A stretch of 64,000 bases of DNA from Escherichia coli (GCF_003334785.1 NZ_QOWV01000015.1), one strand, 5' to 3'. Shown: positions 7,438-61,942, numbered from the stretch's first letter. The notes: generated by a model not told the origin, from the sequence alone. Numbers and translations: made by a program.

Positions 7438-8913
7438 ATGGCGGTAACGCAAACAGCCCAGGCCTGTGACCTGGTCATTTTCGGCGCGAAAGGCGACCTT
7501 GCGCGTCGTAAATTGCTGCCTTCCCTGTATCAACTGGAAAAAGCCGGTCAGCTCAACCCGGACACCCGGATTATCGGCGTAGGGCGTGCTGACTGGGATA
7601 AAGCGGCGTATACCAAAGTTGTCCGCGAGGCGCTCGAAACTTTCATGAAAGAAACCATTGATGAAGGTTTATGGGACACCCTGAGTGCACGTCTGGATTT
7701 TTGTAATCTCGATGTCAATGACACTGCTGCATTCAACCGTCTCGGCGCGATGCTGGATCAAAAAAATCGTATCACCATTAACTACTTTGCCATGCCGCCC
7801 AGTACTTTTGGCGCAATTTGCAAAGGGCTTGGCGAGGCAAAACTGAATGCTAAACCGGCACGCGTAGTCATGGAGAAACCGCTGGGGACGTCGCTGGCGA
7901 CCTCGCAGGAAATCAATGATCAGGTTGGCGAATACTTCGAGGAGTGCCAGGTTTACCGTATCGACCACTATCTTGGTAAAGAAACGGTGCTGAACCTGTT
8001 GGCGCTGCGTTTTGCTAACTCCCTGTTTGTGAATAACTGGGACAATCGCACCATTGATCATGTTGAGATTACCGTGGCAGAAGAAGTGGGGATCGAAGGG
8101 CGCTGGGGCTATTTTGATAAAGCCGGTCAGATGCGCGATATGATCCAAAACCACCTGCTGCAAATTCTCTGCATGATTGCGATGTCTCCGCCATCTGACC
8201 TGAGCGCAGACAGCATCCGCGATGAAAAAGTGAAAGTACTGAAGTCCCTGCGCCGCATCGACCGCTCCAACGTACGCGAAAAAACCGTACGTGGGCAATA
8301 TACTGCGGGCTTCGCCCAGGGCAAAAAAGTGCCGGGATATCTGGAAGAAGAGGGCGCGAACAAGAGCAGCAATACAGAAACCTTCGTGGCGATCCGCGTC
8401 GACATTGATAACTGGCGCTGGGCCGGTGTGCCATTCTACCTGCGTACTGGTAAACGTCTGCCGACCAAATGTTCTGAAGTCGTGGTCTATTTCAAAACAC
8501 CTGAACTGAATCTGTTTAAAGAGTCGTGGCAGGATCTGCCGCAGAATAAACTGACTATCCGTCTGCAACCTGATGAAGGCGTGGATATCCAGGTACTGAA
8601 TAAAGTTCCTGGCCTTGACCACAAACATAACCTGCAAATCACCAAGCTGGATCTGAGCTATTCAGAAACCTTTAATCAGACGCATCTGGCGGATGCCTAT
8701 GAACGTCTGCTGCTGGAAACCATGCGTGGTATTCAGGCACTGTTTGTACGTCGTGATGAAGTGGAAGAAGCCTGGAAATGGGTAGACTCCATTACTGAGG
8801 CGTGGGCGATGGACAATGATGCGCCGAAACCGTATCAGGCCGGAACCTGGGGACCCGTTGCCTCGGTGGCGATGATTACCCGTGATGGTCGTTCCTGGAA
8901 TGAGTTTGAGTAA
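7438..8913 (+). CDS. zwf: Glucose-6-phosphate 1-dehydrogenase Zwf
   Basis: 491-aa ORF; G6PD active-site motif RIDHYLGKE; Rossmann [11 protein letters not shown]. Confidence 0.95.
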
Positions 8914-8936
8914 TATCTGCGCTTATCCTTTATGGT

Positions 8937-8954
8937 TATTTTACCGGTAACATG
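8937..8954. promoter_or_regulatory. GntR-like operator palindrome (TTACCGGTAACAT) upstream of edd
   Basis: Near-perfect dyad TTTTACCGGTAACATG resembling the GntR operator consensus; lies between the zwf stop and the hairpin. Confidence 0.4.
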
Positions 8955-8992
8955 ATCTTGCGCAGATTGTAGAACAATTTTTACACTTTCAG

Positions 8993-9026
8993 GCCTCGTG
9001 CGGATTCACCCACGAGGCTTTTTTTA
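8993..9026 (+). terminator. Hairpin + T-run (zwf terminator or edd leader structure)
   Basis: GCCTCGTG...CACGAGGC stem followed by TTTTTTT. Confidence 0.55.
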
Positions 9027-9147
9027 TTACACTGACTGAAACGTTTTTGCCCTATGAGCTCCGGTTACAGGCGTTTCACTCATAAATCCTCTGAATGAAA
9101 CGCGTTGTGAATCATCCTGCTCTGACAACTCAATTTCAGGAGCCTTT

Positions 9148-10959
9148 ATGAATCCACAATTGTTACGCGTAACAAATCGAATCATTGAACGTTCTCGCGA
9201 GACTCGCTCTGCTTATCTCGGCCGGATAGAACAAGCGAAAACGTCGACCGTTCATCGTTCGCAGTTGGCATGCGGTAACCTGGCACACGGTTTCGCTGCC
9301 TGCCAGCCAGAAGACAAAGCCTCTTTGAAAAGCATGTTGCGTAACAATATCGCCATCATCACCTCCTATAACGACATGCTCTCCGCGCACCAGCCTTATG
9401 AACACTATCCAGAAATCATTCGTAAAGCCCTGCATGAAGCGAATGCGGTTGGTCAGGTTGCGGGTGGTGTTCCGGCGATGTGTGATGGTGTCACCCAGGG
9501 GCAGGATGGAATGGAATTGTCGCTGTTAAGCCGAGAAGTGATTGCGATGTCTGCGGCGGTGGGGCTGTCCCATAACATGTTTGATGGTGCTCTGTTCCTC
9601 GGTGTATGCGACAAGATTGTCCCAGGTCTGACGATGGCAGCCCTGTCGTTTGGTCATTTGCCTGCGGTGTTTGTGCCGTCTGGACCGATGGCAAGCGGTT
9701 TGCCAAATAAAGAAAAAGTGCGTATTCGCCAGCTTTATGCCGAAGGTAAAGTGGACCGCATGGCCTTACTGGAGTCAGAGGCCGCGTCTTACCATGCGCC
9801 GGGAACATGTACTTTCTACGGTACTGCCAACACCAACCAGATGGTGGTGGAGTTTATGGGGATGCAGTTGCCAGGCTCTTCTTTTGTTCATCCGGATTCT
9901 CCGCTGCGCGATGCTTTGACCGCTGCCGCTGCGCGTCAGGTTACACGCATGACCGGTAATGGTAATGAATGGATGCCGATCGGTAAGATGATCGATGAGA
10001 AAGTGGTGGTGAACGGTATCGTTGCACTGCTGGCGACCGGTGGTTCCACTAACCACACCATGCACCTGGTGGCGATGGCGCGCGCGGCCGGTATTCAGAT
10101 TAACTGGGATGACTTCTCTGACCTTTCTGATGTTGTACCGCTGATGGCACGTCTCTACCCGAACGGTCCGGCCGATATTAACCACTTCCAGGCGGCAGGT
10201 GGCGTACCGGTTCTGGTGCGTGAACTGCTCAAAGCAGGCCTGCTGCATGAAGATGTCAATACGGTGGCAGGCTTTGGTCTGTCTCGTTATACCCTTGAAC
10301 CATGGCTGAATAATGGTGAACTGGACTGGCGGGAAGGGGCGGAAAAATCACTCGACAGCAATGTGATCGCTTCCTTCGAACAACCTTTCTCTCATCATGG
10401 TGGGACAAAAGTGTTAAGCGGTAACCTGGGCCGTGCGGTTATGAAAACCTCTGCCGTGCCGGTTGAGAACCAGGTGATTGAAGCGCCAGCGGTTGTTTTT
10501 GAAAGCCAGCATGACGTTATGCCGGCCTTTGAAGCGGGTTTGCTGGACCGCGATTGTGTCGTTGTTGTCCGTCATCAGGGGCCAAAAGCGAACGGAATGC
10601 CAGAATTACATAAACTCATGCCGCCACTTGGTGTATTATTGGACCGGTGTTTCAAAATTGCGTTAGTTACCGATGGACGACTCTCCGGCGCTTCAGGTAA
10701 AGTGCCGTCAGCTATCCACGTAACACCAGAAGCCTACGATGGCGGGCTGCTGGCAAAAGTGCGCGACGGGGACATCATTCGTGTGAATGGACAGACAGGC
10801 GAACTGACGCTGCTGGTAGACGAAGCGGAACTGGCTGCTCGCGAACCGCACATTCCTGACCTGAGCGCGTCACGCGTGGGGACAGGACGTGAATTATTCA
10901 GCGCCTTGCGTGAAAAACTGTCCGGTGCCGAACAGGGCGCAACCTGTATCACTTTTTAA
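9148..10959 (+). CDS. edd: Phosphogluconate dehydratase Edd
   Basis: 603-aa ORF, IlvD/Edd dehydratase family (CDKIVPG motif). Confidence 0.95.
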
Positions 10960-10995: not shown

Positions 10996-11637
10996 ATGAA
11001 AAACTGGAAAACAAGTGCAGAATCAATCCTGACCACCGGCCCGGTTGTACCGGTTATCGTGGTAAAAAAACTGGAACACGCAGTGCCGATGGCAAAAGCG
11101 TTGGTTGCTGGTGGGGTGCGCGTTCTGGAAGTGACTCTGCGTACCGAGTGTGCAGTTGATGCTATCCGTGCTATCGCCAAAGAAGTGCCTGAAGCGATTG
11201 TGGGTGCCGGTACGGTGCTGAATCCACAGCAGCTGGCAGAAGTCACTGAAGTGGGTGCACAGTTCGCAATTAGCCCGGGTCTGACCGAGCCGCTGCTGAA
11301 AGCTGCTACCGAAGGGACTATTCCTCTGATTCCGGGGATCAGCACTGTTTCCGAACTGATGCTGGGTATGGACTACGGTTTGAAAGAGTTCAAATTCTTC
11401 CCGGCTGAAGCTAACGGCGGCGTGAAAGCCCTGCAGGCGATCGCGGGTCCGTTCTCCCAGGTCCGTTTCTGCCCGACGGGTGGTATTTCTCCGGCTAACT
11501 ACCGTGACTACCTGGCGCTGAAAAGCGTGCTGTGCATCGGTGGTTCCTGGCTGGTTCCGGCAGATGCGCTGGAAGCGGGCGATTACGACCGCATTACTAA
11601 GCTGGCGCGTGAAGCTGTAGAAGGCGCTAAGCTGTAA
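10996..11637 (+). CDS. eda: KDPG / KHG aldolase Eda
   Basis: 213-aa [26 protein letters not shown]...; immediately downstream of edd. Confidence 0.95.
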
Positions 11638-61840: not shown

Positions 61841-61942
61841 TGGGTTCTCACTTCCTGACCATCAAAATTGACAACATCACCATCCTATAATTGACTGAAA
61901 AGGAATTAATCCCCGTAACTGGTGAAACATAAAACACGAATC

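Follow-up and report, generated by a model that had tools for sequence, protein, structure and literature searches.

The operators of the gluconate regulon of Escherichia coli are textbook material, and the repression by GntR of the gluconate-inducible promoter P1 of edd-eda was reportedly described by Murray and Conway in 2005. The control region of gntT is said, in the account given by Peekhaus and Conway in 1998, to contain two GntR operators together with a CRP site, and DNA looping between the operators was reportedly proposed. The same repressor and the same 16-bp motif are encountered there as at edd, the K-12 gntT operators reading ATGTTACCCGTATCAT and ACGTTACCCATAACAA. In front of gntK (gntRKU) the operators ATGTTACCGATAACAG and CAGTTACCCGTAACAT, which again have the motif of edd, are placed in tandem, 13 bp apart, whereas the edd operators of the Enterobacteriaceae are not in tandem but split by 222 bp.

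Loss of gntR has been found to raise the expression of edd 11.2-fold and that of eda 5.1-fold in vivo (PMC9648032), and edd is also repressed by Cra (PMC8085971). Control of edd P1 by GntR is, as such, already known and represents ordinary regulation, and both edd operators and their positions have likely been described previously. The additions made by this study are modest: the conserved nesting of the -35 hexamer of edd in the loop of a terminator, selection on synonymous positions in the operator within edd, a phased operator spacing, which is suggestive, and a natural experiment in a single lineage, Escherichia sp. ESNIH1 (locus L027).

Materials and Methods

The window, i.e., the whole stretch of DNA that was analysed, comprises 64,000 nucleotides of E. 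coli and contains the zwf-edd-eda locus, with all three genes on the + strand, hexR upstream in divergent orientation and purT downstream (Table 1). K-12 coordinates are obtained by subtracting the window coordinate from 1943752. The spacer between the zwf stop (8913) and the edd start (9148) measures 234 bp. A 451-bp query spanning it found a match in all 5,426 complete E. coli genomes, some of the matches being at 100% identity, and the comparison of the spacer with K-12 MG1655 shows a single mismatch, at 9079.

For comparison, 80 edd loci from other species were collected. In 61 of these zwf lies directly upstream of edd, and 60 of the 61, all from Enterobacteriaceae, have a spacer of 218-380 bp. 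The outgroup consists of 20 edd loci from Serratia, Yersinia, Rahnella, Proteus, Xenorhabdus, and Erwinia. Alignments comprised 58 spacers and 51 distinct hairpin regions. The three Buttiauxella loci (L040, L043, and L044) carry a structured insert of ~145 nt between the zwf stop and the upstream operator (first ~169 nt of the spacer), which folds at -51 to -57 kcal/mol, contains CACCCCAGTCACTTACTT...TAAGCTCCTGGGGATT, and leaves the distance from this operator to edd unaltered; presumably, it resembles an ERIC/IRU repeat.

GntR sites were scored with a symmetric position weight matrix (PWM) trained on only four K-12 operators, i.e., the two overlapping ones before gntK and the two at gntT. The sigma-70 scan used a textbook-style hexamer matrix with frequencies that were supplied by us.

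Table 1. Features of the zwf-edd-eda region, in window coordinates. Operators, terminator, promoter hexamers, and the Cra-like site are predictions.
Feature	Coordinates	Strand	Description	Basis and remarks
zwf	7438..8913	+	Glucose-6-phosphate dehydrogenase, CDS	ORF list; NCBIfam TIGR00871, 682.8 bits; RefSeq annotation under match
Predicted GntR operator O1	8938..8953	.	ATTTTACCGGTAACAT	19.7 bits (PWM); centre 8945.5, ~-94.5 from predicted P1 start
O1 right flank	8954..8965	.	GATCT (invariant), N4, CA(G)	Alignments; weakly CRP-like, centre 8958.5, ~-82 from P1
Predicted intrinsic terminator of zwf	8991..9025	+	GC-rich stem-loop 8991-9018 plus T7 9019-9025	Folding, covariation
Predicted edd P1 -35	9005..9010	+	TTCACC; terminator loop plus two closing C	Invariance, PWM scan, PMC3946193
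Predicted edd P1 -10	9028..9033	+	TACACT; 17 bp after -35	ATTACACT invariant or nearly so
Cra (FruR)-like site	9036..9049	.	CTGAAACGTTTTTG	Alignment; overlaps predicted P1 start
edd ribosome-binding site and start codon	9138..9150	+	AGGAG 9138-9142; start codon 9148-9150	Sequence, ORF list, alignment
edd	9148..10959	+	Phosphogluconate dehydratase, regulated gene	NCBIfam TIGR01196, 1128.9 bits
Predicted GntR operator O2	9160..9175	.	TTGTTACGCGTAACAA, perfect palindrome; edd codons 5-9	18.8 bits; centre 9167.5, ~+127.5 from predicted P1 start
eda	10996-11637	+	3' of edd	eda NCBIfam models

Predicted GntR Operators Upstream of and Within edd

The 13-mer TTACCGGTAACAT at 8941-8953, which is unique in the window, forms the core of the 16-bp near-palindrome ATTTTACCGGTAACAT (8938-8953; O1), which begins 24 nt past the zwf stop codon. 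Its score of 19.7 bits falls within the range of the training sites themselves (17.8-21.3 bits), and by exact enumeration a site of this grade is expected by chance 0.003 times per 64 kb. Only two matches above 15 bits occur in the 64-kb window, O1 and a second site (O2; 18.8 bits), and both match gntT/gntK operators of the ATGTTACC-GGTAACAT type. O1 was retained in all 60 related loci with zwf directly upstream of edd and is identical in most of them. Judged from these scores and alignments, ATTTTACCGGTAACAT is a predicted operator of the LacI-family gluconate repressor GntR. A sequence-only reading of this DNA had pointed to a GntR-like dyad between the zwf stop and a hairpin followed by a T-run. 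This dyad is the top-scoring predicted GntR operator, is conserved in the 60 loci, and the order of zwf stop, dyad, and hairpin with T-run holds, with the earlier coordinates being right to 1-2 bases.

The PWM revealed no second site 13 bp from O1, as present at gntK, no match in the right flank of O1 (8954-8965), and no site reaching 2.3 bits between O1 and O2. Two GntR half-site lookalikes that are found only in E. coli (9062-9072 and 9095-9111) scored below 2 bits, are not conserved, and were rejected. The GATCT flanking O1 contains a Dam GATC site, and neither it nor the conserved CA(G) beyond it is accounted for by the GntR motif. Elsewhere in the window, a GntR-like sequence (ATGTTAGCGAAAACAT; 62682-62697; 14.7 bits) lies within an ORF (61922-62866) and is probably due to chance. 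The supplement of a RegPrecise-based study (PMC4052901) contained no site lists.

The second site, O2, did not figure in the sequence-only reading and changes how O1 should be read. The probability of encountering a site of its grade within +/-300 bp of O1 is 7e-5, and it occurs at position +12 of edd in 60 out of 60 related loci. The edd codons 5-9 that it covers encode Leu-Leu-Arg-Val-Thr and are spelled (T/A/G)TG TTA CG(C/G) GTA ACA throughout the 60 species. At the third positions TTA and GTA are invariant and ACA is frozen save for two ACG exceptions; the operator forces the use of the rare leucine codon TTA. Where codon 5 changes its amino acid, from Leu to Met, the change is toward the operator consensus, ATG. 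Synonymous sites of the neighboring codons 2-4 and 10-14 vary freely in the same 60 species, and in the 20 outgroup loci Arg-Val-Thr is spelled by many codons while residue 6 is not Leu. Judging from this codon usage, O2 is under selection as DNA at its synonymous positions.

The Probable zwf Terminator and the Predicted edd Promoter

The hairpin downstream of O1, the base of which lies 77 nt past the zwf stop, pairs 8991/8993-9003 with 9009-9018/9020, with a 1-nt bulge (C9001) and the loop AUUCA, and is followed by seven T residues (9019-9025) and an A at 9026. Its folding energy is -18.9 kcal/mol (z = -6.3) and none of 200 shuffled sequences was as stable. A simple consensus scan of 8700-9400 flagged neither a terminator nor a promoter, a result that is uninformative given the bulge and the 8/12 hexamer match of the promoter discussed below; the bulge, which leaves just two pairs beside the loop, likely explains why the hairpin was missed. 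Across the 51 distinct sequences there is little or no variation in the loop GGATTCACC, the T-run, and ATTACACT, while the stem varies. Six of its 10 pairs show compensatory change, with GCCTCGTG/CACGAGGC, GCCCCGAC/GCGGGGC, and GCTCCG/CGGAGC as examples. Cells with a double change number 37 vs. 7.2 in shuffles (0/500 shuffles as high), and 90% of the cells are paired vs. 43-66% in controls with slid partners. On this covariation, it is the structure of the stem, rather than its sequence, that is under selection.

A natural experiment is provided by Escherichia sp. ESNIH1, which possesses an extra canonical terminator (GCGGCCCTGCGGGGCCGTTTTTTT; -17.0 kcal/mol, T7) between zwf and O1, at nt 18-43 of the spacer. 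Here the usual stem has degenerated and folds at -3.6 kcal/mol only, with GGATTCACC, the T-run, ATTACACT, and the promoter hexamers intact. In this single lineage, the pattern is the one expected if the stem serves zwf termination and the rest serves a promoter. The hairpin and the T-run are the probable intrinsic terminator of zwf, with termination presumably taking place at the T-run. Among published data on RNA 3' ends, the searched data of Adams 2021 contained no zwf or edd entry and no coordinate match, and TERMITe 2025 gave no match for the zwf terminator region.

The predicted edd promoter P1 has the hexamers TTCACC and TACACT with a spacing of 17 bp (8 out of 12 consensus positions). 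Scoring 10.5 +/- 0.5 bits, it outranks every other sigma-70 candidate in the spacer in 52 of the 61 species. P1 would be built into the zwf terminator, the loop acting as the -35 hexamer, the 3' arm and the T-tract as the 17-bp spacer, and the -10 hexamer following directly. Its predicted start would fall at 9039-9041, downstream of the hairpin. The same hexamers were listed in a genomic SELEX study, in which RpoD holoenzyme bound the zwf-edd spacer in vitro (PMC3946193). Primers designed to “replace eddp1” remove 8956-9147 and leave O1 and O2 in place (PMC4172795), and this deletion fits a database promoter located inside that interval. Since the best conserved promoter has its -35 hexamer in the hairpin loop and its start near 9040, the hairpin is best regarded as the terminator of zwf, and because the terminator of zwf and the promoter of edd are nested in this way, O1 is situated within the zwf 3' UTR. 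Of the two alternatives of the sequence-only reading, it is, therefore, the first one (the hairpin terminates zwf, so that the 3' untranslated region of zwf contains the operator) that finds support, both from the covariation of the stem and from the placement of the promoter.

The second alternative assigned the hairpin to an attenuator in the edd leader. It requires a promoter of which the right half of O1, TAACAT (8948-8953), is the -10 hexamer and which starts near 8960, so that the hairpin would be a premature terminator that is read through upon induction. There is precedent for such a promoter, because an operator right half (TATCAT, TAACAT, or TAACAA) acts as the -10 hexamer in gntT, gntK, and the outgroup edd genes of Proteus and Xenorhabdus and is, in fact, the norm in the family; furthermore, some genera have a weakly conserved T(T/A)A(T/G)CC 19 bp upstream of TAACAT, and in ESNIH1 the TAACAT promoter reaches 7.6 bits. 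However, its average score is only 3.2 +/- 1.8 bits compared to 10.5 for the downstream promoter, it is the lower of the two in 61 out of 61 species, and there is no family-wide conservation of its -35 region. The RNAalifold consensus of 8954-9026 (56 sequences) contains the terminator hairpin alone, with no alternative (antiterminator) pairing conserved in the stretch from O1 to the hairpin, and Rfam yielded no significant leader match at a permissive threshold (the best, a trpB motif with E = 0.66, is at chance level). The decay of the stem in ESNIH1, where zwf has its own terminator, also argues against an attenuator, which should not depend on zwf termination. Moreover, an attenuator leaves the invariant loop and the invariant ATTACACT past the T-run unexplained, and would place the Cra-like site at +77 instead of at the start, whereas this site fits a start at ~9040. 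With the sole conserved promoter starting past the hairpin, at ~9040, no alternative fold, and the evidence from ESNIH1, the attenuator is not supported and we consider it unlikely. On the comparative evidence, the edd start probably lies downstream of 9026, an outcome that the earlier reading had itself named as part of its refutation and that tells against the attenuator branch.

The Cra-like site is conserved in most species as CTGAA(A/G)CG(A/T)TTTTG, reading CTGAAGCGATTTTG in most relatives. The assignment of 9036-9049 to Cra, made by comparison with the Cra consensus and in view of the reported repression of edd by Cra, is tentative. With respect to mapped starts, no match for an edd start was present in the searched data of Ettwiller 2016, and genome-wide start maps obtained in the absence of gluconate contain no start within the zwf-edd spacer. 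Three low-count starts assigned to edd (Kim 2012) are all located inside the 3' part of zwf, at ~8553, ~8742, and ~8797; transcripts from these starts would cross O1 and then meet the terminator.

The position of O1 inside the zwf transcription unit, before its terminator, raises the question whether it serves zwf instead of edd. LacI-family repressors can act as roadblocks, and GntR bound 24 nt past the zwf stop might halt zwf polymerases short of the terminator and thereby influence the 3' end of zwf or the stability of its mRNA, or it might prevent read-through into edd-eda. However, O1 is located between 12 and 170 nt from the zwf stop (Buttiauxella insert included) while its distance to the -10 hexamer stays at 87-89 bp, a strong terminator is already present downstream of O1, and edd is indicated as the target both by the presence of O2 within it and by its derepression in gntR mutants. 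We consider a role of O1 in zwf expression highly improbable.

Operator Spacing and a Proposed Mechanism of Repression

The centres of O1 and O2 are 222 bp apart and bracket P1 at ~-94.5 and ~+127.5. Because neither operator overlaps the polymerase footprint, simple occlusion is ruled out as the mode of repression. The distance from the centre of O1 to the end of the -10 hexamer is 87-89 bp in 61 out of 61 species, even though the sequence at 8966-8990 drifts. The distance between O1 and O2 is 222 bp in 22 species. It amounts to 218-223 bp in 48 species; 12 species have 209-214 bp and a single one has 232 bp, and distances of 215-217 or 224-231 bp do not occur. L047 and L048, which are close relatives, are distinguished by a clean indel of 10 bp. 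Steps of about one helical turn are the signature of sites that have to face the same way and, therefore, favor a loop formed by GntR. This is suggestive and not proof, as the spacing classes are +/-2-3 bp wide (5-6 bp) and occur among related species, with a Rayleigh R of ~0.5 on the unique distances.

We propose that GntR dimers bound to O1 and O2 would interact in the absence of gluconate and form a loop of 222 bp, or ~21 helical turns. With the terminator, P1, the Cra-like site, and the start of edd inside it, this loop would keep RNA polymerase from productive initiation, and O2 may double as a roadblock. Gluconate would release GntR, upon which P1 would fire. We know of no GntR tetramers, so that a loop would depend on contacts between dimers or on a helper protein. 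Three conserved T-tracts occur at 8978-8982, 9019-9025, and 9044-9048; with spacings of ~43 and 23 bp they are roughly in phase with the helix and could bend the looped segment.

Repression may also be envisaged without a loop, with O1 blocking an upstream activator or an alpha-CTD contact, e.g., CRP at the weak site centred at 8958.5, and O2 being a plain roadblock to elongation. The invariance of the O1 right flank (GATCT...CAG) extends past the palindrome, and this stretch overlaps a match to the CRP core at 10 of 16 positions (compared by hand with the consensus). The constant distance of 87-89 bp between O1 and P1, despite the drift in between, would also suit this explanation, and in outgroup edd promoters clear TGA-N6-TCACAGAT sites are found nearer to the -10 hexamer by about one helical turn. 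Furthermore, gntT is CRP-dependent. However, the right half of the putative site is unlike that of a real CRP site, since its first base varies and its fourth, a C in the consensus, is a conserved G. We came across no report that edd is controlled by CRP, and the ~10-bp steps in the O1-O2 spacing are not explained if there is no loop. We regard repression without a loop as rather doubtful. Taken as a whole, the model with the hairpin as zwf terminator, P1 nested in it, O1 and O2 bracketing this promoter, and repression through a GntR loop seems to us probable. The sequences show the identity of the parts and their conservation, the covariation of the stem, the selection on synonymous positions of O2, and the fixed or phased spacing; GntR occupancy, looping, the P1 start, and termination are what we infer from them.

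The arrangement may also allow a mechanical coupling between zwf and edd, because polymerases transcribing zwf would cross GntR at O1 and then terminate atop the -35 hexamer and spacer of P1. Heavy zwf transcription, for example upon induction by SoxS/MarA or during fast growth, could evict GntR, open the loop, and in this way derepress edd-eda independently of gluconate, so that Entner-Doudoroff capacity would follow the supply of 6-phosphogluconate. Conversely, GntR at O1 could form a roadblock for zwf polymerases and affect where the zwf mRNA ends. The conserved nesting merely permits such a coupling, and we give it only a small chance of being real.

In the outgroup the layout is a different one. 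Five loci from Serratia, Xenorhabdus, Erwinia, and Proteus (L068, L073, L075, L076, and L077), in which zwf does not precede edd, have single or tandem operators (14-15 bp apart) on the promoter, 80-200 bp upstream of edd. In these loci the operator right half is the -10 hexamer, a CRP-like TGA-N6-TCACAGAT occurs at ~-71, and the coding sequence contains no operator. The split layout that brackets the promoter seems to have been derived within the family that has edd downstream of zwf.

Comparison with Known Systems

The zwf-edd region shows a tight packing of a terminator, a promoter, and two distant operators, and provides a clean natural system for studying looping by LacI-family repressors from positions off the core promoter. 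It also has a bearing on engineering, in that swaps of the edd promoter that keep 8938-8953 and 9160-9175, as in PMC4172795, retain both GntR operators.

Like edd, gntT has two operators that are more than 100 bp apart, the distal one being located at ~+120 in gntT and at ~+127 in edd. However, the proximal operator of gntT overlaps the -10 hexamer, whereas both edd operators are off the core promoter, and the operators of gntT are spaced by 141 bp (13.4 turns, a non-integral number) instead of 222 bp. The tandem layout of gntK is shared by the outgroup edd promoters of Proteus and Serratia.

Overlap of a terminator with the promoter of the next gene is seen in other compact spacers, where, as here, a GC-rich hairpin with a U-tract ends the upstream gene and the downstream promoter shares its DNA. 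The zwf-edd region differs in that the overlap is exact and conserved, with the loop corresponding to the predicted -35 hexamer and the T-tract to the spacer, and in that the operator of the downstream gene precedes the terminator.

The best analogy for the proposed repression of edd is, in our view, the gal repressosome. In both cases a dimeric LacI-family repressor has two operators that flank a promoter which they leave uncovered, one of them intragenic, and a loop encloses, or at edd would enclose, the promoter. At gal, GalR binds OE (-60.5) and OI (+53.5), which are looped with the aid of HU, and the loop measures ~113 bp vs. 222 bp at edd. The repressor and the motif are, however, different ones, and at edd it is the operator spacing only that points to such a loop.
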